Assembly: GCA_038207335.1 (NCBI GenBank)
Contig: JBBQZX010000002.1
Span: 128,001-192,000 of the forward strand
DNA from: Chthoniobacterales bacterium
GTDB taxonomy: Bacteria > Verrucomicrobiota > Verrucomicrobiia > Chthoniobacterales > Chthoniobacteraceae
DNA: 64,000 nt
Direction: 5' to 3'
The notes under the pieces: generated by a model
Told to the model about the DNA's origin: nothing
What the model saw: only the letters and a program-made list of their open reading frames with translations
Database searches by the model: none
Shown here: one piece after another, positions 30,645 through 43,711 of the stretch
Layout of the letters: every line of letters begins with the position of its first letter
Position numbering within the stretch: position 1 is the first letter of the stretch
Translations under genes and position numbers: made by a program

Positions 30645-31709
30645 GTGATCCGACCACTCTTCGCGCTGACCCTCAGCGCGCTGCTTTCTACTGCCGGAGC
30701 ACAGACGACCACCCCGCCGCCTCCCGTACGCTCCACCGTCTATTTCGCGCAAAACCCGGACGCGATTTCGCGCTATGAAGAGCGCCCGGAAATCACTCGC
30801 CGCATGGTCGATGACCTCGTCATCGCAACGACCGGCCAGCGCGACATCGCAGCCGCCTGGCGCTCGCTCGTGAGCCCGAAAGATCAAGTCGGCATCAAGG
30901 TTTCCGCGTCCGGCGGCCTCTATTTTTCCACTCACCGAGGCATCGCCGAGGCGGTCGTCGCCGGCCTCGAAAAAGCCGGCGTTTCACGCTCCCAAATCAT
31001 CGTCTGGGATCGCGATGCCGAGTCGCTGCAAGAGGCCGGCTTCCACACCACGCGCGGAGGCGTCGCGGTGCGCGGAATCACTCCCGCATCCGGCTACGAT
31101 CGCGCGGCGGAAGTGATCGCGCCGGTGCTTGGGCGCTTGATCTGGGGCGACCTCCTCTTTTCAGAAAAGCAGATCAAGCCGCTTGGCCAACGTCTGTCCG
31201 AATCCTCGCAACTAAGCTCCACAAGCCACATCGCCACCATCCTCAGCCGCGGCGTCACGAAAGTGGTCAACCTCCCCATCCTCAGCAACGAACCCGGCTG
31301 TGGAGTCGCCGGCGCGATCTACAACATGACCGTGCCAAATCTCGACAACTGGCGCCGCTTCACCTCGCCCGGCGACGCCTCCGCCAGCGATGCGCTCGGC
31401 GACATCTATGCCGACCCGCGCATCGGCGGAAAAATTGTCCTCACGATCATGGACGGCCTCATCGCCCAATACGCCGGCGGTCCGTCCGGCAATCCGAATT
31501 ACGCCTTCGCGCACGAGACAATTTACGCGAGCAAAGACCCCATCGCGCTCGATGCCACGGCCCTCCGCAGCCTCGAGGCGTGGCGGCGCGAAGCTCATCT
31601 GCCGCCGATCGGCCGACGGGCCGATTGGCTCCCAGCCGCCGCCGATTCCGGGCTTGGGCGCTTCGCTGAAAATCAGATCGATTTGAAACCCGTGGGTTCC
31701 GCTCGATGA
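30645..31709 (+). CDS. Secreted DUF362-domain protein
   Basis: Signal peptide; AAWRSLVSPKDQVGIKV, IIVWDR, VNLPIL...GVAGAIYNM, DGLIAQYAGGP, SKDPIALDA. Confidence 0.75.
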   Translation: MIRPLFALTLSALLSTAGAQTTTPPPPVRSTVYFAQNPDAISRYEERPEITRRMVDDLVIATTGQRDIAAAWRSLVSPKDQVGIKVSASGGLYFSTHRGIAEAVVAGLEKAGVSRSQIIVWDRDAESLQEAGFHTTRGGVAVRGITPASGYDRAAEVIAPVLGRLIWGDLLFSEKQIKPLGQRLSESSQLSSTSHIATILSRGVTKVVNLPILSNEPGCGVAGAIYNMTVPNLDNWRRFTSPGDASASDALGDIYADPRIGGKIVLTIMDGLIAQYAGGPSGNPNYAFAHETIYASKDPIALDATALRSLEAWRREAHLPPIGRRADWLPAAADSGLGRFAENQIDLKPVGSAR

Positions 31710-32674
31710 CGACCGCCGACCTCGCCGGGCCGCTTCTCGCATCGGTCTCGCGCTCCTTCTATCTCACAATCCGCATCCTGCCCGCCGCGCTGCGCGCACC
31801 CATCGGATTGGCTTACTTGCTCGCTCGCGCGTCTGACACCATCGCCGACACCGCCGATGCGAGCGCCGAAATCCGGCTGCGGCACCTCGCAAACTTCGGC
31901 GAAATGATCGCCACCTCCAGCCGCGAAGATCTCACGGATTTGCAACGCGAAATCTGTCCCGCCGATGCAGGGGAAATGGAGCTGATCGCAAAACTAGACC
32001 GCTGCCTCGCGTGGCTCGATTCACTCCCAGCGAGCGACCGCATCCAGATTGCCGCCGTGATGAAAAAGATCATCCATGGCCAGACGCTCGATCTGCAGCG
32101 CTTCCCCGCTTCGGATAAAATAACCGCACTCAAATCCGCCGCGGAGCTCGATCAATACACGTATCTCGTCGCCGGTTGTGTGGGCGAATTTTGGACGCGC
32201 ATCTGCCTCCAGCACCTCCCGAGATACTCTCATCTTCCGCCCGAAGAACTCTGCCGACTCGGCACTAATTTCGGCAAAGGACTCCAGCTCGTGAACATCA
32301 TCCGCGACCTCCCCGCCGACCTCCGGGCGGGCCGCTGCTACCTCCCATCGGATCAATTTTCCACCCGTTGCCCGACCCCGGACGACCTTGTGTCCGAGCC
32401 AATCTCCGCGCGTCCCGTCGTGGATCACTGGCTCGCGCAAGCCAGCGCACATCTCGCCGACGGACGCCTCTACATCGCCTCCCTCCGCTCGGCCCGTCTC
32501 CGCGCTGGCTGTTTTCTGCCGTGGTATCTCGGCCTTAAAACCATCGCGCTCATGCGCGCTCACCCGCCGCTCGAGTCCGCGCAGAGAATCAAGGTTCCCC
32601 GATCCACCGTCCGCACCGCGCTCGCGCTCGCGCTCCCTGTCGCATTCACGAACCGCGCGTTGCCCGCCGCTTAA
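31706..32674 (+). CDS. Squalene/phytoene synthase family protein
   Basis: VSRSFYLTI, YLLARASDTIAD, YTYLVAGCVGEFW, GKGLQLVNIIRD...GRCYLP; ATGA overlap with the upstream gene. Confidence 0.9.
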   Translation: MTTADLAGPLLASVSRSFYLTIRILPAALRAPIGLAYLLARASDTIADTADASAEIRLRHLANFGEMIATSSREDLTDLQREICPADAGEMELIAKLDRCLAWLDSLPASDRIQIAAVMKKIIHGQTLDLQRFPASDKITALKSAAELDQYTYLVAGCVGEFWTRICLQHLPRYSHLPPEELCRLGTNFGKGLQLVNIIRDLPADLRAGRCYLPSDQFSTRCPTPDDLVSEPISARPVVDHWLAQASAHLADGRLYIASLRSARLRAGCFLPWYLGLKTIALMRAHPPLESAQRIKVPRSTVRTALALALPVAFTNRALPAA

Positions 32675-32686
32675 CTTCTCGCGACT

Positions 32687-34486
32687 TTATCGACCAGACG
32701 CCGCGGTATCGGCGAGATAGGCTCGCCAGCCACCGTGCTCGGTGATGTCGATTCCGCCGTCGAGAGCGCAGGGCTCGCAGGCAAAACCTTTTGCAGTCGA
32801 ACCGTCGGCGAGTTCGACGGTGCCAATGGTCATCGGTGCGGGGACTTCGGCCACGAATGAACCGAAAGCAGCTTCGCTCAATGCCCACACCTCGACTTCG
32901 ATTCCGCGGGCTTGTGGGTCGGTGGTGCGGACAAGTCCGGGCTTCGGCGGCGTGGTATTTGCGAGCGCGTAGAGACGATACGTTGGCGCTGTTTGCGTTG
33001 CTTTCACAAACCGCGCACCGCGACTTGTGAGCTGGTGATTGAGCGGCATTCCGCTCAAGTGCGCGCCGACGACAGTGAGAAAAATATCGCGCGCAACAGG
33101 CGCGAAGACCTCCGGTTGATCGGCCATTTTCGCGCTCGTCACGCCGAGATTTCCGCCGCCCGCCCGATGAAGCCGATCACCGAGCGCGAGAAGTGCGCGA
33201 TCGGAGAATGCGGGTGCCATAAGCGTGACTCCGAATGGCAGGCCATCTCCGCGAAAGCCCCCCGGCACAGCGATGGCGGCAAGATCGAGCAAGTTCACAA
33301 AGTTTGTGTAAAAGCCGAGATTGGAGTTCAGCCGGATGGGGTCGGCCTGGACTTCAGCGATCGTGTAGGTGGTGCCGGCGGTCGGCAGCAGGAGCACGTC
33401 CATCCTCCCCCACTCCGCCCGCGCGGCGGCGGTGAGCGCCTGCAATTTGTAGGCGGCATCGAACGCATCCCGCGCGCTGTATTTGTCCGCTCCGCCGATG
33501 ACCGCGCGCACGGTCGGGTCCATCGCCTCCCCTTTCCGATCGAGAAAATCGCCGAGCGCGTGGCGCCGCTCTGCGACCCACGGCCCTGCGTACAGCAATG
33601 CCGCCGTCTCGCGAAAGGGCGCAAAGTCGATTTCCACGCGCTCGCATCCGAGCGCGGTCAGACGGGTTGCCGATTGCTCGAAAAGTCGCGCGGCATCGGC
33701 ATCACCAAAGAACTCGAGTTGGTCCGCCTTGGGCACGCCGAATCGCGGGCGCTCAGTCAGAACCCGATCGGTTAGCACGCGTGAGAATGCGTCTTCGGAA
33801 TCAGTGCCAGCAGCCGCATCGAACACCACACGCGCATCGGCGCTGCTGATCGCGAAAATCGAGACGCAGTCGAGCGAGCGGCATGCGGGGAAAACACCGC
33901 GCGTGCTGAGCACGCCTTTGCTCGGTTTGAGGCCGACGATGTTATTGAACGCCGCCGGCACGCGACCTGAACCCGCGGTGTCCGTGCCCAGCGAAAACGC
34001 AACCATTCCCGATGCCACGGCGACCGCGGAGCCGGAGCTCGATCCGCCGGAGATGTAGCGTGGATCGAAGACGGACGAGCATGCGCCATGCGGCGTCCGC
34101 GTCCCTACGAGGCCCGTTGCGAACTGATCCATATTAGTTTTTCCAATCGGAATCGCGCCCGCCGCCATGAGACGCTCGACCACGGTCGCCGAGCGTTCCG
34201 GCGTGAACGCAAACTCCGGACACGCCGCCGTGGTCGGCACGCCTGCGAGGTCAATGTTGTCCTTAATCGCAAACGGCACGCCGAACAGCGGAAGCTTTTC
34301 GATGTCTGAAGGCGTGAGCTTTTCCACGAAAGTCATCACCTCTTCCCGGCTCAACAGCGTGATCCAAACATGCGGTTGCGCGGCGCGCCGCAGCGCTTCA
34401 TCGATCACGTCCGAAACGGTCACAACGCCTTCGCGATACAGCTTTCGAAGCGTCGGAATGGTGAAATAAAGTTCGGAGAGATTCAT
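32687..34486 (-). CDS. atzF: Allophanate hydrolase
   Basis: Amidase signature KDNID, GKTNMDQFATGLVGTR, GGSSSGS, GTDTAGSGRVPA; C-terminal VVGAHLSGMPLN domain. Confidence 0.95.
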   Translation of the reverse strand: MNLSELYFTIPTLRKLYREGVVTVSDVIDEALRRAAQPHVWITLLSREEVMTFVEKLTPSDIEKLPLFGVPFAIKDNIDLAGVPTTAACPEFAFTPERSATVVERLMAAGAIPIGKTNMDQFATGLVGTRTPHGACSSVFDPRYISGGSSSGSAVAVASGMVAFSLGTDTAGSGRVPAAFNNIVGLKPSKGVLSTRGVFPACRSLDCVSIFAISSADARVVFDAAAGTDSEDAFSRVLTDRVLTERPRFGVPKADQLEFFGDADAARLFEQSATRLTALGCERVEIDFAPFRETAALLYAGPWVAERRHALGDFLDRKGEAMDPTVRAVIGGADKYSARDAFDAAYKLQALTAAARAEWGRMDVLLLPTAGTTYTIAEVQADPIRLNSNLGFYTNFVNLLDLAAIAVPGGFRGDGLPFGVTLMAPAFSDRALLALGDRLHRAGGGNLGVTSAKMADQPEVFAPVARDIFLTVVGAHLSGMPLNHQLTSRGARFVKATQTAPTYRLYALANTTPPKPGLVRTTDPQARGIEVEVWALSEAAFGSFVAEVPAPMTIGTVELADGSTAKGFACEPCALDGGIDITEHGGWRAYLADTAASGR

Positions 34487-34525
34487 AATTTCACGCGGCA
34501 GCGACTTTGAGCGAGCGCTCCCATT

Positions 34526-37500
34526 TCATTCCTCGACGAGAACGAGCAGCGCCTGTCCCGGATCGACCGTGCGGCCTTGCGCGCAGAGCAGCCGCTGCAC
34601 TTTCCCACGAGCGGGTGCGACGATCGCGGTCTCCATTTTCATCGACTCTAAAATCACCAGCTTGTCTCCTTCCTCCACCGCATCGCCCTCGCTCACGAAC
34701 ACCTGCCAGACGCTGCCCGGCAGTGGCGCGGAGACGACGCGGCCCCCCGGCGGCAGCTCGATTTCCGGGCGTGCAATTTCAGGCTCCGGATCTGCCTCCA
34801 CAAGGTCCTGCCCCGCTGCCGCCCATCGGTCGCGCTCGGCGGAAAAGGCGGCTCGTTGCGTTTGCCGAAAGGCCCCGATCGAGTCGGCGTTCTCAGCGAG
34901 GAAAGCCTGATATTCCGAGAGTCGAAATGTCGTCTCCTCGACCCGCACCTCGAAGCGGCCGTTCAGGAAATCGGCGCGATGCCGCAACAGCTCCTCCGCG
35001 CTCACGGGATAAAATCGAACCTGATCGAAGAACCGCAGCAACCACGGTTTTCCCGCCTCGAAATTCCGAGTACACCGCCATGGATTCCAGCACTGCACGG
35101 TGCGCCCGACGAACTGATAACCGCCCGGCCCCTCCATCCCGTAAATGCACATGTAAGCTCCGCCGATGCCGACCGCATTTTCCGGCGTCCAAGTGCGCGC
35201 CGGGTTGTATTTCGTGGTTACGAGCCGGTGCCGCGGATCGAGCGGTGTGGCGACCGGCGCCCCGAGATAAACATCGCCGAGCCCGAGCACGAGATAGCTT
35301 GCGTCAAAGACAATGCGCTTCACTTCCTCGATATCCGAAAGCCCGTTGATGCGGCGGATGAATTCCAAATTACTCGGGCACCACGGCGCGTCCGAACGCA
35401 CGGATTGCATGTATTTTTGGATCGCTAGCTGAGTCGCCGGGTCGTCCCACGAAAGCGGCAGATGAACGATGCGCGATGGAACTTCGGTCGCGTCGAGCGG
35501 CGGGAGTTGCGTTTCGGCCTGCTGCAGTTTTGCCAAAAGATCGCGCAGCGGAAGCACCCGCGCGTCGTAGTGAATTTGCAGCGATCGAATGCCAGGCGTG
35601 AGGTCGAGGATCCCGCGCAGATGATTCGCCTCGAGCCATTGCATCAGTGCGTGAACGCGAAAACGGAGGGCCAGATCGAGGACGAGTTCGCCGTATTCGA
35701 CGAGCAGATTTCGGTCTCCCGCGCGGCGATACGTGACCGGCACGCCGGCATCGGATGACTCTCGCAAAGGCGCAAAGGCGCAGAGATTGGGAGCAGAAAG
35801 CGGCTCGGGATCGGCGCTCATTGGGTCGTTCTCCGGCCTCGCGTTTATGCGGACCGAAGTCCGAATCTCTTGATCCTGAGCGGCTTCACGAGCGTTCGCA
35901 TCGTCGAGCGCGATGCGGATGAAACGGACGGTGTCGCCCGGCTTGAGCTGTCCCATTTTCCACAGCTCGCTCTGCACGATGCACGCCGGGCAGACGAATC
36001 CGCCGAGGCTCGGGCCGTCGGGGCCGAGGATGATTGGCATGTCGCCGGTGAAATCAACGGCGCCGATTGCGTACGCATTGTCATGGATGTTCGACGGATG
36101 CAGTCCCGCCTCGCCGCCATCGGTTCGCGCCCATTTCGGCTTCGGGCCGATCAATCGGACACCGGTGCGGTTCGAGTTGTAATGCACTTTCCAAGGCGTC
36201 GCGAAGAACATCGCGATGTCGGCGTCCGTGAAAAAATCCGGCGCACCGTGCGGCCCGTAGAGCACGCCGATTTCCCACTCATTCGTGTAGCTCGGGACGA
36301 GCGCCGTCGGAAGCGGAGCGGTAAAATCTGAGCGCTCAAGAATTCCCGACTCCACAGCGGCGAGATGCAAAACATCGCCGATCCGCAACGCGCGCCCGCC
36401 GTGACCGCCAAACTTCCCGAGCGTGAAAGTCGAGCGGCTGCCAAGGTATGCGGGCGTCTGAAATCCGCCCGTCACTGCAAGGTGCGCGCGCGCGCCCGGC
36501 CCGCTCACCGCGCGCATGCACAGCACATCGCCCGCGGCGACCCGATGCGCCGTCCAGCGCGCGAGCGGAATGCCATTCAGCTCGGCGGCAAAGTCCGCGC
36601 CGCACAACGCGATATGAGTCGGTACGTTGAAGCGCAGCGTGGGGCCGGTCATCACGATCTCGAGCGCCGCCGCGGATTCGGGATTGCCGATGATGCTGTT
36701 CGCGAGGCGGTGCGCAAGATGATCCATCGGACCCGAGGGCGGCACGCCGACCGCCCAAAATCCGATGCGCCCCGGGAAATCCTGCACAGTCGTTTGCGCG
36801 CCCGATTCAAGCACATCGACTGTGCGCGGCGCGTATGCGAAATCGGCCAGAAATCGCGTGGTGACTTGGCCCGCAGCAAATTGCGGCGTCGCGATGACTT
36901 CGCCCAAGTAGGCGAGATTGCACTCGATCCCCCCAAACACAGCAGCCGAAAGCGCGGCCTGCAAACGCGTGACTGCCTCCTCGCGACTCGGCGAGTGAAC
37001 GATGATCTTCGCGAGCATCGGATCGTAAAATTGCGTCACCTCAGTGCCGCTTTCAACCCACGTTTCGCACCGCGCGTTTTCGGGCAAAACAACCTCGGTA
37101 AGTGTTCCGCAGCTCGGCTGAAAATTTTTGTGAGGATCCTCTGCATAAACGCGGACTTGGATCGAATGGCCGCGCGGCGCGTGCGTGTAAGTGTCGAGGA
37201 AAGTGTCGTCGCCCGCCGCGAGCCGGACCATCCATTCGACAAGATCGACGCCGGTCACTTCCTCCGTCACGCCATGCTCGACCTGCAAACGCGTGTTCAC
37301 TTCGAGAAAATAAAACTCGCCGCTTTCCGCATCGAAAACGAACTCGACGGTGCCCGCGGAGCGATAGTTCACGGCCCGTCCCAGCTTCACCGCAGCGGCA
37401 AAAAGCTGAGCGCGCTGAGCGTCCGAAAGGCCCGGCGCAGGTGTCTCTTCGATCACCTTTTGATTCCGCCGCTGCGTCGAGCAATCCCGCTCCCCCAGCG

Positions 37501-38164
37501 CCACAACTCGCCCTTTTCCATCGCCGAAAATCTGCACCTCGATGTGCCGCGCACGTGCCACGAACTTCTCCAAAAATATGCCGGACTCCTTGAAGTTGCT
37601 GCGGCTCAACCGCTCCACCGAGGCGAACGCCTCCGCGAGTTCATTGCGATTTTCACACACGCGCATCCCGATGCCGCCGCCGCCCGCTGTGCTCTTCAGC
37701 ATCACGGGAAAGCCGATTCTCTCGGCCTCTACCATTGCGATCTCTGCGGTCGCGAGAAGGCCACTTCCGGGCAAAAGTGGCACTTCATTTTGCTCAGCAA
37801 TTTCCCGAGCGGTATGCTTCAAGCCAAAGCGCCGCATCTGCTCCGGCGTCGGCCCGATGAACTGGAAACCCGCTTGCTCACAGGCTTCCGCGAACTCCGC
37901 ATTTTCGCTCAAAAAGCCATATCCCGGGTGAATCGCCTGCGCGCCAGTCCGCCGCGCAGCGTCCAAAATCTTCTCCATGCGCAGATAGCTCTCACTCACA
38001 GGCGGCGGCCCGAGCAGCACACTTTCATCAGCATCGCGCACATGCAGCGAGTCGGCGTCCGCCTCGGAAAACACCGCCACCGCCCGGACTCCAAGCCGAT
38101 GCAGCGTGCGTGTGATGCGGCGCGAAATCACCCCGCGATTGGCAATGAGAACTTTGTCGAGCAT
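34526..38164 (-). CDS. uca: Urea/guanidine carboxylase (biotin-dependent), guanidine-type active site
   Basis: [27 protein letters not shown], carboxyltransferase [28 protein letters not shown] and [11 protein letters not shown], biotinyl ESMKME. Confidence 0.95.
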
Positions 38165-38805
38165 CAGTCCCAGATGAGCAGGCGCACGGGTGTCGGGTTA
38201 TAGCCGTTGCACGGGTTGTTGAGCTGCGGGCAGTTCGAGATGACTGCGAGCACGTCCGTCTCGGCGCGCATCTCGACATAACGGCCGGGAGCGGAGATGC
38301 CGTCGGCGAAAGTCAGACCGCCGTCAGGAGTCACCGGCACATTCATGAAAAAGTTGATGTTATTTGTGATGTCCCGCTTTTCCCACTCCGCGCCGCGCAG
38401 GCGCAGCGCGCGCCAGAAACTGTCGCGGCAGGCGTGCATGTGCCGCTTCTCCAGCGCATAGCGCACCATGTTGCTCTCGCACGCGCACGCTCCGCCCAGC
38501 GTGTCGTGGCGTCCGCAGGTGTCGGCGATGATCGTCAGCAGTGCATTCCCGCGCGTGGAAAAAAGGCGCGTGCCAGTGGTGAGGTAGATGTTCTCCTGTT
38601 CACGGATCGTGTCCTGCGCGCTGTAGCGGTCGGCTGGGTCGTGCAGGTCGTAAAAGAGAGTGTCAGCGGCTTGATTTCCCTCCAGGTCGACGATGCGAAA
38701 CGTCTGACCGCGCAGGATTTCGTTCGACCAGCCTTCTCCCGCCGGGAGCGTAAAGTCATAACTCGCTTGCTCAGCTTCAAGCGTGCTTTCGGTCAGTGTG
38801 TTCAT
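38164..38805 (-). CDS. cgdB: Urea carboxylase-associated DUF1989 protein, carboxyguanidine deiminase subunit B
   Basis: [57 protein letters not shown]. Confidence 0.88.
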
Positions 38806-39527
38806 TGAAAGTAACGCTCCGTCAGAATAAAGCCGCGTTCGTTTTCAGCGCATGAGTTGCGACATGTATCCGCTGCCGTGACCGGAGGTAAACTCCACAC
38901 GATCAAGCTCACGGACTTTGGAGCGTAGGTGGGTGAAGGATCGAGCGGATGCGGACAGGTATTCAGCACGACAATCACATTCATCTCGGCGCGAAGATCG
39001 ACGAATGCGCCAGCCTTTGAGCTGCCGGGGTGGTAGCTCATCGCCCCGAGATCATCGACCGTCACTTTGCCGAAAAAGTTGACGTTCATCGCAAGGTCGC
39101 GCTCCCCGAGATTGTATTTGCCGAGCTCGGTCAGGAACCCGTCGTGCGCATTGCGATGCCATTCGTTGCGGGCCTGCTGGTAAGTCAGTTCGCCATACTT
39201 TGCCGCGATGTTTCGTGCATTCGAGCAGCCTGTAAGCGGGTCGTGCCAGCCGCAGGTATCCTCGGTGATCGAGACCAGGATGCGACCCATGTCCGAGTAG
39301 AGGCACGCGCCTTTCGTAAGCTTCGCAATGTGCTGACACTTGAGCGTATCGGGCAGATTCAGGCGCTCGGATGGCAGCTCGAAGTTGTAGAAGAGCGCGG
39401 AGACATTGCCATCCCCTTCGAGGTCGATGACTCGGAGCGTGGTGCCGCGCTTGAGCACATGCGACCAGTTGGCGCCGGGCATCACGGTTTCGGTGAATCG
39501 GATGAGAGAAGGATCGAGTTCGGGCAT
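38802..39527 (-). CDS. cgdA: Urea carboxylase-associated DUF1989 protein, carboxyguanidine deiminase subunit A
   Basis: [44 protein letters not shown]. Confidence 0.88.
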
Positions 39528-39967
39528 CAGTAGATCGGTGGGAGCACCGTCGAGGTGACATTGAGGTATCCGTGCTTCACGCCTTTGCAGGCGATCAGTT
39601 CGTCCGCGATGAGCTTCAGACGCACGCCCGGCGCTTGGGCCAGGATGACTTCTAGGCTGTGGTGGTTCTCAAGATGGACGTGCTGGGACGAGATGATCTC
39701 CTTCAAGTAGCGGTGCTGAATCTTCATCAAGCGGCTCTGCAACCCCGGCTTCGTGTGGTCGTAAATAATCGTGATCGTGCCCGCCATGACCTGACGCCCG
39801 AAGCGCTGTTGATGAGCGACGAGTTGCTCGCTGATCATCTTGGAAATGGCTTCCGAGCGGCTGGCATGGCCTTTTGCGGCGACCATCGCATCGAGCTGAC
39901 CGTGGAGTTCGACGGGAAGAGAGATGCTGATTCGTGCGGCGTTTTTGCGTTTTCGGATATTAGCCAT
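39527..39967 (-). CDS. nikR: NikR-family ribbon-helix-helix transcriptional regulator (Cys-to-Ser variant)
   Basis: RISISLP...LDAMV...G..SRSEAI RHH domain; GTITIIYDH, QH, HVHL, LEVI and GVKHG of the NikR C-terminal domain; stop overlaps the cgdA start. Confidence 0.88.
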   Translation of the reverse strand: MANIRKRKNAARISISLPVELHGQLDAMVAAKGHASRSEAISKMISEQLVAHQQRFGRQVMAGTITIIYDHTKPGLQSRLMKIQHRYLKEIISSQHVHLENHHSLEVILAQAPGVRLKLIADELIACKGVKHGYLNVTSTVLPPIY

Positions 39968-40024
39968 GAGCGGGGCGGAAGGCCAAAAGCAGTAAACGTG
40001 CGCACCGCTGAAACGCTCAGATGA

Positions 40025-40052
40025 GTATTACTTGTTCCCTTATTCGTCCTAC
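40025..40052. promoter_or_regulatory. NikR-type operator 1
   Basis: GTATTA-N16-TCCTAC versus the E. coli NikR site GTATGA-N16-TCATAC; outer flanks extend to a perfect TGAGTA...TACTCA inverted repeat (40022-40055). Confidence 0.7.
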
Positions 40053-40110
40053 TCACCACGTGGGCCTCCGGAACCGATTTGCGCACATCGGATGGCTCAC
40101 TTTGCGCATC

Positions 40111-40138
40111 GTGTGAAGAATCGCACCTTTCGTCATAC
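40111..40138. promoter_or_regulatory. NikR-type operator 2
   Basis: GTGTGA-N16-TCATAC, an 11/12 match to the E. coli NikR operator with the exact 16-bp spacer. Confidence 0.75.
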
Positions 40139-40218
40139 GCCACAATCAAGCAGGCAACGGCCTGCGGAAGCTGATGGCATCAGGGCTTCGAGACAATTTG
40201 CAGGGCCGGAGTGCCGGC

Positions 40219-40234
40219 TGGCACGGGTGCTGCA
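40219..40234 (+). promoter_or_regulatory. Sigma54 (-24/-12) promoter for the ABC importer operon
   Basis: TGGCAC-GGGTG-CTGCA; GG (40220-21) and GC (40232-33) at the canonical spacing, about 47 nt upstream of ATG 40282. Confidence 0.75.
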
Positions 40235-40281
40235 TACAGGCCGCGAACCGCTTCGCATCCACACTCACTCCACTTCGAACC

Positions 40282-41250
40282 ATGAAATTCAAAACTCTTC
40301 TCACCGCTGCACTTTCACTCGGCCTCGCCACCGCGCTTCAAGCCGAGACGTTGAAGATCGGATATTCCGATTGGCCGGGCTTCACCATCCTCGAAGTCGC
40401 CAAACAAAAAGGCTGGTTCAAGGAAGCTGGCGTCGATGTCGATCTGGTCTGGTTTGATTACCTGCCTTCGCTCGACGCGTTTGCCGCGGGCAAGGTGGAC
40501 GCTGTTACTGCGGTCGCGACCGATGCTCTCGTCAACGGGGCCAGCGGAGCGAAGAGCAAACTGATCGCGCTGCTCGATTTCAGCGAAGGCAGCGACATGA
40601 TCATCGGCGCGCCGGGCGTGACCTCGATCAAGGATTTGAAAGGAAAGAAAGTCGGGGTCGAACTTACGCTCGTCGAGCATCTGCTTTTGCTCAAAGCGCT
40701 GAAGGCGAACGGCATGAAGCCGAGCGACGTGACGCTGGTCAAGACGACCACCAACGACACGCCTCAGGTGCTTGCCAGCGGGAAAGTCGCGGCGATCGGC
40801 GCTTGGTATCCGGTATCGGGGCAGGCTCTCAAACAGGTTCCAGGATCGAAGGCGCTTTTCACGAGCGCCGATGCGAAAGGGCTGATTTACGACACCCTCG
40901 CGGTGAATCCTGTGAGCTATGCGAAGAACAAGGAGGACTGGGCAAAAGTGGTGTCGATCTACTACAAGTGCGTGGATTACCTCAAGGATCCGAAGACAGC
41001 CGACGATGCGGTGAAGATCATGGCGGCGAAAGTCGGAGCCACCGTGGAGGAATACGCGAAGAATGTTCCCGGCACTCACTTCCTCACGCTTGCGGAGGCG
41101 AAAGCGGCTTACAAAAAGGGTGATGGGCTGAATTCGATCTACGGGTCGATGGCGATCGGCAATCAGTTCAATCTCGACAACGAAGTCTATAAAGTGTCGC
41201 AGAAGCCCGAGGGCTACATCGTCCCGAGCGTGGTTACCGGGTTGAAGTAA
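40282..41250 (+). CDS. ABC transporter substrate-binding protein (NitT/TauT family), probable guanidine/urea uptake
   Basis: Signal peptide ending ALQA; IGYSDWPG, WFDY, DFSEGSDMII, DLKGKKVGVE; divergent from the carboxylase operon. Confidence 0.85.
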   Translation: MKFKTLLTAALSLGLATALQAETLKIGYSDWPGFTILEVAKQKGWFKEAGVDVDLVWFDYLPSLDAFAAGKVDAVTAVATDALVNGASGAKSKLIALLDFSEGSDMIIGAPGVTSIKDLKGKKVGVELTLVEHLLLLKALKANGMKPSDVTLVKTTTNDTPQVLASGKVAAIGAWYPVSGQALKQVPGSKALFTSADAKGLIYDTLAVNPVSYAKNKEDWAKVVSIYYKCVDYLKDPKTADDAVKIMAAKVGATVEEYAKNVPGTHFLTLAEAKAAYKKGDGLNSIYGSMAIGNQFNLDNEVYKVSQKPEGYIVPSVVTGLK

Positions 41251-41264
41251 ATCTCTTACGCCGG

Positions 41265-42278
41265 ATGGCGCATCGAGATTGGCTGGGCTTGAAAATGGAG
41301 CTGCCGCGGAAGCGGCGGCTCCTTCTCACGTTGCTCTCCTTTCTCGCACCGCTCGCGGTCTGGTGCGCAGTGAGCTATGTGACGTGGCTCTGGCATCCGC
41401 TGGTGCATATCACGGCGCAGGGGGATGTGGATTACTTTGCCGAGGACATGGATGTGGCGCGCGCGGACTTCGACCGGGAGTTGGCAAAGACCCGCGCGGA
41501 TGGCACGGCGCCGCCCGAAGGGTTTCGCGTGAATCCAGTCTATCTCCCCGCGCCTCATGAGGTGGCGCGCGCCTTCTACACGGCCTTCAAGACACCGCCG
41601 CGCATGGCCTCGGAGCCTTGGTTGCATGAAAGCCTGGGGCACAGTATTCGCACGATATTCTGGGGATTCGTGCTGTCATCGCTCTTTGGTGTTCCGCTGG
41701 GAATCTTGTGCGGATCGTACCGCTTTTTTTCGAGACTGCAGGAGCCCTTCATCGAGTTCTTTCGCTACCTTCCCGCGCCGGCATTCGGCGCGCTTTGCAT
41801 TGCCATTCTCGGTATCGATGACGCGCCAAAGATCGCGATCATCGTCATTGGCACATTCTTCCAACAGGTGCTCGTGATCGGCAATACGGTGCGAAAGGTC
41901 GATCCTGCGCTCATTGAAGCGGCGCAGACGCTTGGCGCATCCGGCTGGCAGCTCGTGCGGCGTGTCATCATCCCGGCATCGATCACCGACATCTACACGG
42001 ACATGCGCATCCTGCTCGGATGGGCCTGGACTTACCTCATCGTGGCGGAGGTCGTCGGCAGCATGTCGGGCATCACCTACTTCATCAATCAACAGGCACG
42101 CTATCGGAACTTCGACAACGTCTATGCAGCCATCATGATGATCGGCATCATCGGCTTTTCGTGCGACCTCTTCCTTGCGTGGTTGGGGACGGGATTGTTT
42201 CCTTGGAAAAGGAAATCGCGCTCCGGTTCGCGTATTTCCTTTTGGGACCGATTGCGTCCGAAGCTGATTCCCGCTTGA
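41265..42278 (+). CDS. ABC transporter permease (NitT/TauT family)
   Basis: YLPAP, EFFRYLPAPAFG, LIEAAQTLGA, GWAWTYLIVAE. Confidence 0.92.
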   Translation: MAHRDWLGLKMELPRKRRLLLTLLSFLAPLAVWCAVSYVTWLWHPLVHITAQGDVDYFAEDMDVARADFDRELAKTRADGTAPPEGFRVNPVYLPAPHEVARAFYTAFKTPPRMASEPWLHESLGHSIRTIFWGFVLSSLFGVPLGILCGSYRFFSRLQEPFIEFFRYLPAPAFGALCIAILGIDDAPKIAIIVIGTFFQQVLVIGNTVRKVDPALIEAAQTLGASGWQLVRRVIIPASITDIYTDMRILLGWAWTYLIVAEVVGSMSGITYFINQQARYRNFDNVYAAIMMIGIIGFSCDLFLAWLGTGLFPWKRKSRSGSRISFWDRLRPKLIPA

Positions 42279-42295
42279 TCCACTAGCCCGTCGAG

Positions 42296-43192
42296 ATGAT
42301 CTCCAGCGAATTCGATTACCGCAAAATGTCCCCTGCCGTTGCGGAGAGATTCGCGCGCATCCGACAGCGCCCGGTCATTCTCAGCGTGCGCGATTTGGAA
42401 AAGCGGTTCGGCAGCGAGGAGGGAGCGCATACCGCGTTCCAAGGTGTGTCGCTCGATATTCATCGGCGCGAGTTCATCTGCGTCATTGGGCCGTCGGGCT
42501 GTGGAAAGTCGACATTCATCCGCATCGTCGCGGGACTGGATGAAGCGAGCGATGGCGTTGTCTTGCTCGATGGGAAAGCGGTGACGGGACCTGGTCCCGA
42601 CCGTGGGATGGTCTTTCAAGGCTACACGCTTTTCCCGTGGCTCACGGTGCGGGCGAATGTCATGTTTGGCCTTCAAATGTGCGGAAAGGACAAGCTGGTC
42701 GCCGAGAGTGAAGCGCGCGAGTGGCTCGACATGGTGGGTCTCACAAAGTTCGAGCACTCCTATCCGCACGAGTTGTCGGGCGGCATGAAGCAGCGGGTGG
42801 CCATCGCGCGGGCTTTGGCAAATGGTCCGCGCATTCTCATCATGGACGAACCTTTTGCCGCTCTCGATGCGCAGACTCGGTGCCAGATGCAGAGCTATCT
42901 GCTGCAGATTTGGAAGAAGGTGGATGTCACCATTTTGTTCATCACGCACGATCTCGAAGAGGCGGCTTATCTTGCCGATCGCGTGCTGGTGATGGGCACG
43001 AATCCGGGGCGCGTGGTGGAGTTCATCGACAATCCGGTGCCGCGTCCACGTAGCTCGGCGCAGTTTCTATCAACTGAGTATCTGGCGTTGAAAGCGCGCC
43101 TTGATGAACTCATCCATCCGCCGGTGGAAGTCGGAGACGAGGATCTGCTGCCGATGGTAAAGCTGACATCAGCCGGGGATGATGTGGAGTAA
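42296..43192 (+). CDS. ABC transporter ATP-binding protein (NitT/TauT family)
   Basis: GPSGCGKST, LSGGMKQR, IMDEPF, ITHD. Confidence 0.93.
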   Translation: MISSEFDYRKMSPAVAERFARIRQRPVILSVRDLEKRFGSEEGAHTAFQGVSLDIHRREFICVIGPSGCGKSTFIRIVAGLDEASDGVVLLDGKAVTGPGPDRGMVFQGYTLFPWLTVRANVMFGLQMCGKDKLVAESEAREWLDMVGLTKFEHSYPHELSGGMKQRVAIARALANGPRILIMDEPFAALDAQTRCQMQSYLLQIWKKVDVTILFITHDLEEAAYLADRVLVMGTNPGRVVEFIDNPVPRPRSSAQFLSTEYLALKARLDELIHPPVEVGDEDLLPMVKLTSAGDDVE

Positions 43193-43279: not shown

Positions 43280-43711
43280 ATGTCTGACTCCAAATCGTTC
43301 TGGAACCATCCTATCGACAAGCTCGAAGAAGCTCTGTCCATCCGCAAACAAATCGACTCACTGCAAGCGAAGCTCGCAAAGATCTTCGGTGGCGACAGTG
43401 CTTCGACGGCAGCCACCAAGCCCGCTAAGAGCAAGATCACCGTCCCCGCTGCTGCGAAGCGCAAGGGTGGGAAACGTATCGTCTCGGCGGAAGCTCGCGC
43501 GAAGATCGCCGCGGCGCAGAAGGCGCGTTGGGCTGTGAAAAAAGGAACTACCGCGAAGCCTGCAAAGGCTGCGAAACCGGCCAAAGCGGCGCCCGTTGCA
43601 AAGGCTGCGAAGCCGGCGAAGCGCAAGAGTGGGCTCACGCCGGAAGGCCGTGCGAAGCTGGCCGAGGCGATGAAGGCCCGCTGGGCAGCTCGCAAGAGTG
43701 CGCAGGCCTAA
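43280..43711 (+). CDS. Small basic Lys/Ala-rich putative nucleoid-associated DNA-binding protein
   Basis: N-terminal coiled coil, two copies of a (S/T)xE(A/G)RAK(I/L)AxAxKARWA motif, and PAKAAK histone-H1-like repeats. Confidence 0.7.
   Translation: MSDSKSFWNHPIDKLEEALSIRKQIDSLQAKLAKIFGGDSASTAATKPAKSKITVPAAAKRKGGKRIVSAEARAKIAAAQKARWAVKKGTTAKPAKAAKPAKAAPVAKAAKPAKRKSGLTPEGRAKLAEAMKARWAARKSAQA

Follow-up and report, generated by a model that had tools for sequence, protein, structure and literature searches.

The window analysed here is a stretch of 64,000 nt from a Chthoniobacterales bacterium (assembly GCA_038207335.1, contig JBBQZX010000002.1). Eight open reading frames (ORFs) at positions 32687..43192 make up the locus under study: a nikR-like regulator gene, cgdA, cgdB, a predicted guanidine carboxylase gene and atzF on the minus strand, and genes encoding an importer of the ATP-binding cassette (ABC) type, transcribed divergently, on the plus strand (Table 1). 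Start and stop codons overlap at nikR/cgdA, cgdA/cgdB and cgdB/carboxylase, atzF follows after a 39-bp gap, and an intergenic region of 314 bp separates the nikR-like gene from the importer. All of this is as described in an earlier note on this DNA, which had suggested that guanidine assimilation is run here by a NikR-family protein and sigma54 instead of a guanidine riboswitch. The closest relatives are genomes named Chthoniobacter or Chthoniobacteraceae.

The carboxylase, which is annotated as urea carboxylase, carries Asp704 and Asp964 at the positions that align with residues 1330 (Asn there) and 1584 of the K. lactis urea amidolyase. The residues at these two positions are used to call guanidine carboxylases in the accessible part of PMC11410670, and the review PMC12186494, as far as accessible, gives the same two-residue criterion. 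The Asp signature is present in 28 of the 29 related loci that cover the position, the remaining locus being frameshifted. Since an Asp-type carboxylase occurs together with CgdAB and AtzF, the operon is, judged by its sequence, a guanidine (not urea) carboxylase pathway, as the earlier note had held; UAAP2 we take to be CgdB (and UAAP1 CgdA). The binding protein of the importer scores 124.6 against TIGR03427, below the cut-off of 333.9, is 46% identical to that of a riboswitch-bearing Acinetobacter guanidine locus and had no close match among solved structures. We infer the substrate of the importer from gene context only.

Table 1. Features of the locus and of a second candidate regulator. 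Positions are those of the window unless a locus (L) or genome (G) handle precedes them; a point marks sites without strand.
Feature	Position	Strand	Evidence
atzF, allophanate hydrolase, 599 aa	32687..34486	-	TIGR02713 815 bits, cut-off 511
Predicted guanidine carboxylase (annotated urea carboxylase), 1212 aa	34526..38164	-	TIGR02712 1874 bits; alignment to 5i8i
UAAP2, carboxyguanidine deiminase subunit CgdB	38164..38805	-	TIGR03424 330 bits, PF09347
UAAP1, carboxyguanidine deiminase subunit CgdA	38802..39527	-	TIGR03425 336 bits, PF09347
NikR-fold regulator, 146 aa, ribbon-helix-helix + NikR_C	39527..39967	-	NF003381 126.9 bits (cut-off 105), PF08753, PF01402
Degenerate sigma54-like -24/-12 site facing nikR	39988..40003	-	<=1 mismatch in 30/38 regions; predicted leader 10 nt
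Operator 1, 6-16-6 dyad of NikR type	40025..40052	.	<=1 mismatch in 28/38 regions; genome matrix
Candidate activator site A, 16 bp, TG...CA	40070..40085	.	matrix score 9.1
Candidate activator site B, 16 bp, TG...CA	40093..40108	.	matrix score 9.4; 2 bp from operator 2
Operator 2, 6-16-6 dyad of NikR type	40111..40138	.	<=1 mismatch in 29/38 regions; genome matrix
Sigma54 -24/-12 promoter of importer	40219..40234	+	<=1 mismatch in 27/38 regions; predicted leader 37 nt
ABC substrate-binding protein, NMT1/NitT type, 322 aa	40282..41250	+	PF09084
ABC permease, 337 aa	41265..42278	+	PF00528
ABC ATPase, 298 aa	42296..43192	+	PF00005
PDC-LuxR one-component regulator	L166:7529-8509 (+); L161:13919-14884 (-); L162; L167; G317:C40:84433-85368		head of cgdAB-carboxylase operon

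The nickel site of the regulator

The regulator passes the NikR model NF003381, resembles NikR in a fold search and is about 43% identical to the NikR of P. horikoshii. Like the NikR proteins of E. coli (1q5v/2hzv), P. horikoshii (2bj1) and H. pylori (2ca9), it combines a ribbon-helix-helix with an ACT-like domain, is a predicted tetramer and goes with an operator of the 6-16-6 dyad type, the form given for E. coli in the accessible passages of PMC7055735. It differs from them in a broken His3Cys site, a Pro-Pro tail and its putative targets, which are guanidine genes under sigma54, whereas those of NikR are nickel importers or nickel enzymes. According to the same passages, the nickel ligands of NikR are His76, His87, His89 and Cys95; Ser104 of the regulator aligns with the ligand Cys of the P. 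horikoshii, H. pylori and E. coli proteins. Among 156 close relatives (37 loci and 119 proteins in overlapping sets, which are therefore not independent cases), the ligand-Cys column holds Ser in 143, Thr in 11, a gap in 2 and Cys in none. Arg stands at the His87 position in 64 of them and at the His76 position in another 11, never at both. All 42 outgroup NikRs retain His-His-His-Cys. By these alignments, the His3Cys nickel site is broken across the clade.

A profile search was run against 1.84 billion representatives and the best 150 matches were examined. Within the broad Cys-less group among these matches, all four ligand columns vary, and distant members keep as few as one ligand His. Kept in the group are Glu90, Glu100, Gln111, Pro113 and the C-terminal Pro-Pro tail, the latter occurring in 67 of 80 Cys-less vs 0 of 101 canonical proteins. 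In a quick tree, which left out 31 near-identical loci and 56 of the 101 canonical rows, 78 of the 80 Cys-less rows were grouped to one side of a branch whose support was weak (Shimodaira-Hasegawa-like approximate likelihood ratio test, SH-aLRT, 81) and two fell among canonical NikRs. At the potassium-site positions (Glu30/Asp34 in NikR), the regulator has Glu39/Lys43 and distant members have Gln/Glu, while the first position is also altered in canonical NikRs of the same family. Replacement of the potassium ion by Lys43 was dropped as a general feature, as it holds for the near clade only.

When modeled in four copies, the regulator reached a score of 0.90 (best control 0.01), with agreement between runs in 98% of contacts and a predicted local distance difference test (pLDDT) value of 83; 20 of 30 solved pairs and 1 of 23 single chains attained the pass mark. 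A homotetramer is predicted on this basis, a pass that may reflect likeness to solved NikR. In the model, the dimer-dimer interface brings together the tail and residues 88-90 and 111-113, at a distance from the former metal ligands.

The earlier note had also considered a nickel-scarcity switch, in which the His3 site would still sense nickel or another metal and the nickel-free route would be turned on when nickel is scarce. This is very improbable, because the Cys ligand is missing from every close relative and 75 of the 156 carry Arg at a ligand His position. The window's copy does retain three His (His85, His96 and His98), and the operator resembles the canonical NikR operator. Urease, moreover, is present in all 15 regulator-bearing genomes of the family, vs 42 of 80 overall and 5 of the 8 that have cgdA but not the regulator; its genes follow the importer in 7 of the 37 near loci, with a HupE/UreJ gene in some of them (at least one), and genes of the Urt urea transporter are convergent to the carboxylase in 8. 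However, Arg is found at the His87 position in 5 of the 7 urease-linked near loci, the His set shrinks to a single residue in distant members, no operator was found at this genome's urease locus in a genome-wide matrix scan, and a urease within the importer unit would be regulated with the carboxylase, not against it. The 2024 review PMC11672702, in its accessible part, describes NikR proteins as sensing nickel only and non-native ligand sets as giving no allosteric response, which does not support the switch either. The association with urease may record the origin of the regulator from a urease-linked NikR. Linkage to urease or Urt genes was seen at L013, L016, L021, L024, L026, L029, L030 and L124, and in the window's genome both lie together on another contig (G000:C29:21000-32300).

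Operators, promoters and activator sites

The two NikR-type operators and the sigma54 promoter that had been noted in the gap are present and conserved across 38 intergenic regions (Table 1), with 0 matches in 760 base-shuffled copies for each of operator 1, operator 2 and the sigma54 site. These counts show conservation, not function, because the patterns were read off the same sequences. An operator matrix built from relatives only ranked the window's operators 1st (31.0) and 3rd (26.6) in the 5.17-Mb genome, and ten permuted matrices peaked at 17.3-22.3. The remaining strong hit (2nd in the genome, 27.5) falls within a long ORF of a different contig, and a wider regulon was rejected. Strong intergenic operator sites occur in this genome only at the guanidine locus; the amtB promoter has none. 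The conserved dyads at the locus support the idea of a dedicated protein regulator with its own operators. Sigma54 sites were called with the familiar -24/-12 consensus, and a search of the 314-bp gap for a sigma70 promoter found none.

Two activator-type sites, A and B, lie 23 bp apart between the operators, giving the order nikR, minus-strand sigma54-like site, operator 1, A, B, operator 2, plus-strand sigma54 promoter; the positions of all these sites are conserved. A matrix for the 16-bp site was made from 31 relatives. Its best score among 37 sigma54-like hits in the genome, 19.9, well above the background, belongs to a copy of the site 101 bp before the amtB sigma54 promoter. According to the accessible part of PMC5343134, amtB belongs to the core targets of NtrC in Proteobacteria, with atzF, urease and urea transporters as known extensions. 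The window's genome encodes RpoN and six enhancer-binding proteins, one of which (on C10) best matches NtrC in a scan of AAA+ domains only. The suggestion that nitrogen control is layered on via sigma54 gains support from the 16-bp site shared with amtB. At G000:C4:200533 (-), another sigma54-like site is preceded by a site of the activator type (score 11.1).

The distance from operator 2 to the importer promoter falls into three classes about 11 bp apart, 93-95 (4 of 31), 105-108 (18 of 31) and 115-119 bp (9 of 31), and the minus-strand sigma54-like site lies 122 bp from operator 2 in 22 of 31 regions. Spacing classes one helical turn apart are expected for DNA looping. Both operators are placed between the activator sites and the promoters, and this is where bending proteins act. 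The phased spacing, the abutment of operator 2 and site B and the degenerate minus-strand promoter would also suit a co-activator in a divergent layout, i.e., a ligand-bound tetramer whose DNA bending or recruitment of the enhancer-binding protein lets both sigma54 promoters, one of which is weak, fire. It is the liganded form of canonical NikR that binds DNA, and the H. pylori protein is able to activate (PMC11672702, accessible part). Nevertheless, we regard such co-activation as decidedly unlikely. In other gene orders, 16 of the 32 operators of regulator-bearing long loci in the phylum begin 1-17 bp after the sigma54 -12 element and extend across the predicted start, an Acinetobacter operator ends 5 bp before the -24 element, and operons without the regulator still have sigma54 sites, by pattern, in 2 of 6 phylum loci.

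Riboswitches and distribution of the regulator

An Rfam scan of the window returned no family at threshold, and the sole hit with E<=10 around the gap was noise inside the nikR ORF. Models of guanidine-I, -II and -III found nothing in the genome, which is 94.7% complete; for class III this is a weak blank, its positive control being silent as well. The two leaders, which run from predicted starts at 40245 and 39977, are also shorter than these models (107, 48 and 67 positions). An unknown riboswitch in the leaders was considered and rejected: among 36 leaders, no column was more than 70% conserved, and the 12 that were folded share no fold. The absence of a guanidine riboswitch (classes I-III) that the earlier note had reported for this locus is thereby borne out by covariance models. 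Beyond the window, 81 family genomes, whether they hold the regulator or not, were scanned under stricter filters without a guanidine-I match, and the 28 short and 27 long cgdA loci of the phylum sample gave no hit to any guanidine family. The absence is a trait of the lineage, not of regulator-bearing genomes alone.

In Acinetobacter sp. NCu2D-2 and one A. baumannii record, cgdA is preceded by an operator, a sigma54 site and, with 77.6 and 82 bits (cut-off 63), a guanidine-I riboswitch, in this order; further operators lie before nikR-atzF and the importer unit, and the atzF promoter of NCu2D-2 is free of a riboswitch. Three alphaproteobacterial plasmid records gave no guanidine-I match. Because regulator and riboswitch occur together in Acinetobacter, the former does not simply replace the latter. 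Hence control by a protein "instead of a riboswitch" describes this locus but fails as a rule, also because family genomes lack guanidine-I regardless of the regulator, which is itself missing from 8 of 22 other family genomes with full cgdA. On the Acinetobacter sp. NCu2D-2 plasmid (L157:5398-7624), a 2-oxoglutarate oxygenase gene, a hypothetical gene and a small multidrug resistance (SMR) transporter gene follow the importer genes behind an operator; by description only, this set resembles the methylguanidine demethylation pair of PMC12508155, as far as accessible.

The earlier note had proposed a survey of the neighbourhoods of NikR homologs. We found cgdA directly after the regulator in 34 of the 37 near loci (the other three end at a contig edge) vs 0 of the 42 outgroup loci. 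For a sample chosen without regard to the regulator, 301 phylum genomes were searched with the cgdA model, yielding 28 other positive genomes. The regulator was present in 22 of these, directly before cgdA in 15, divergent at the operon head in five, at the operon tail in one and on another contig in one; it was missing from the locus in six, three of which were searched genome-wide and had none. Operators scoring at least 20 bits were detected at 20 of 21 regulator-bearing long loci vs none of the six without the regulator. Within the family, 15 of 80 genomes carry a regulator of the Cys-less type (one inspected, the others typed by score and position), and all 15 have cgdA. Lower-scoring family hits were canonical NikRs in all seven cases inspected, and the three that were checked adjoin nickel transporters of the CbiM or NicO type. 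Thus, both kinds of NikR coexist in one family with different neighbours. From 77 matching plasmid records, five were opened: the four annotated hits inspected (Novosphingobium, Sphingobium, Asticcacaulis and Acinetobacter) and one unannotated A. baumannii record all have the same context and Cys-less proteins. Homologues occur in cultured strains such as Asticcacaulis excentricus CB 48 (ASTEX_RS18115), where the layout is likewise divergent, and Novosphingobium sp. EMRT-2. The regulator, its operator and cgdAB-carboxylase are tightly linked in Verrucomicrobiota, Alpha- and Gammaproteobacteria.

In 5 of the 8 family cgdA genomes without the regulator, a LuxR-type protein with a PDC sensor (PF22673), at identities of at least 55%, is encoded at or near the operon (Table 1). 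No close copy of it exists in the 15 regulator-bearing family genomes; it is a second candidate protein sensor for the pathway. This protein often takes the place of the missing NikR-type regulator, and our data thus suggest that operons in which no riboswitch was detected are, as a rule, under a substrate-specific protein switch. Six operons (L130-L135, from G013, G010, G175, G136, G002 and G220) contain three DUF1989 genes and no regulator, operator or detected riboswitch; there, a short, repeated, dyad-like motif precedes a sigma54-like site.

Several neighbouring genes were recorded as well. A creatininase-family hydrolase and a glutamine-synthetase-like ligase are inserted in the importer unit of 7 of the 37 near loci (L008:5538-7792, also L007, L012, L014, L015, L025 and L033) and of many phylum loci, and in some cases a Rieske oxygenase and a polysaccharide-deacetylase-like gene accompany them; the window's genome has no close copies. 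Downstream of the ATPase lies a Lys/Ala-rich ORF of 143 aa (window 43280-43711, +) with no match in Pfam, NCBIfam or 79 related loci, which looks, as an impression only, like a histone-like DNA-binding protein. On the other side, a DUF362 protein gene and a gene of the squalene/phytoene-synthase family (window 30645-32674, +) converge on atzF with a 12-bp gap; the pair is not conserved beside the operon in relatives.

Proposed control and relation to known systems

The Cys-less NikR-fold protein is probably a pathway-specific repressor of both flanking sigma54-type promoters, released by guanidine or an intermediate of the pathway, with an NtrC-like activator supplying the signal for nitrogen limitation. 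In such a scheme, the tetramer would act on both promoters via the two operators, and bound tetramers would block either the binding of the activator or its looping to the promoters. The outcome would be an AND gate of nitrogen limitation and substrate. Repression is suggested because operators cover sigma54 start sites in other lineages; for the window, exclusion of the activator would be the likely mode, because the operators flank the tandem activator sites and operator 2 is 2 bp from site B. We infer DNA binding, the sign of regulation, the identity of the activator and the inducer. Provided that the protein is a repressor of this kind, guanidine itself, the simplest inducer, is a tentative choice. 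The signal may instead be an intermediate such as carboxyguanidine or allophanate, or there may be no small ligand; carboxyguanidine, allophanate or a substituted guanidine in the role of inducer appears somewhat unlikely.

Several observations weigh against this repressor model. The window's operators do not overlap start sites, so that repression is carried over from other lineages. The minus-strand sigma54-like site has C instead of G at -25 and a poor score with the matrix of the forward promoter. The activator-type sites of the window (9.4 and 9.1) score about as high as the 99th percentile of the background (9.6, random 180-bp windows), and a 40-bp tandem activator matrix missed them and yielded no hit exceeding permuted controls. 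A search ahead of the urea transporter/urease genes of this genome turned up no sigma54 site. An operator was not seen at the regulator-bearing loci L148 (phylum) and L169 (family), and at 6 phylum and 8 family loci the pathway comes without regulator, operator or detected riboswitch. For guanidinium binding, a conserved pocket with the typical aromatic or acidic residues was not demonstrated. The retained His residues and the urease association described above belong here, too. Finally, with a guanidine-I riboswitch present in Acinetobacter, a second guanidine sensor would be redundant there, favouring another signal.

This coexistence would fit a protein that occupies its operators with no small-molecule inducer, or takes its nitrogen signal from a partner protein or a general metabolite, serving as a damper or architectural factor for sigma54 promoters and not as a substrate sensor. 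The Arg at one or other former His position in 75 of the 156 relatives looks as if the DNA-binding state were now metal-independent, the old metal site shows no conserved ligand pocket, a structural role is conceivable for the conserved tail and the Glu90/Gln111 patch, and autoregulatory operators precede nikR in many loci. Yet we consider such a factor unlikely: the regulon is confined to the guanidine locus, with the amtB promoter free of an operator, the sigma54 layer already supplies a pure nitrogen signal, and the other one-component sensor at the operon in 5 of 8 regulator-less family genomes suggests that a substrate signal is needed.

Carboxylase operons run by riboswitches (guanidine-I/II), such as those of Raoultella terrigena and Klebsiella michiganensis in the accessible part of PMC12186494, have in common with the window's locus the Asp-signature carboxylase, CgdAB, an allophanate hydrolase and an ABC importer. 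In contrast, the locus presented here has no riboswitch, leaders too short for one and a protein regulator with operators, whereas Acinetobacter has both layers. The Synechocystis gdmH/gimABC system (PMC12704784, as far as accessible) is similar in its global nitrogen activator, second pathway-specific layer and NitT-type importer, but it relies on NtcA, a riboswitch and a nickel enzyme where we find sigma54, a protein regulator and a nickel-free route. The Pseudomonas hut operons, in the part of the literature accessible, likewise join a global nitrogen activator (NtrBC) to a local repressor of a catabolic operon (HutC). HutC is a GntR-family protein, unrelated to the window's regulator in fold or operator, and the operons are induced by the intermediate urocanate.

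In the literature searched, with most subscription papers outside the search, we found no description of a Cys-less NikR at guanidine loci. The accessible passages of PMC2667541, PMC12623156, PMC12508155, PMC12704784, PMC12829801 and PMC2536512 do not mention the regulator; a table in PMC2667541 marks A. baumannii as NikR-positive, with no comment. The regulator is a variant of a known family on an already known pathway. What the locus adds is a two-promoter anatomy with a site shared with amtB, an operator geometry that favours repression, coexistence with a riboswitch in Acinetobacter and an alternative regulator. The lost nickel site, the minus-strand sigma54-like site, the two tandem activator-type sites and the overlap of operators with sigma54 starts elsewhere go beyond the earlier note.

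On a broader scale, we tentatively suggest from the sequences that a widespread NikR branch may have turned from a nickel co-repressor into the first protein that senses guanidine, its ligand site newly formed by the conserved tail and the Glu90/Gln111 patch, and that riboswitch-free Verrucomicrobiota may have recruited this branch and, independently, the PDC-sensor LuxR protein to gate guanidine assimilation with sigma54. If true, this would be a metallosensor that switched to an organic ligand, possibly with opposite logic, and a protein-based biosensor for guanidine or for intermediates of its breakdown could be derived from it. The metal-free branch also means that a "nikR" annotation in Verrucomicrobiota, sphingomonads or Acinetobacter is, in many cases, probably no sign of nickel control. 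Guanidine-specific control has so far been known through riboswitches; the regulator would, if this is true, provide a protein sensor for that pathway, and a metal-free NikR branch with a defined operator bears on how riboswitch-less guanidine operons are induced.

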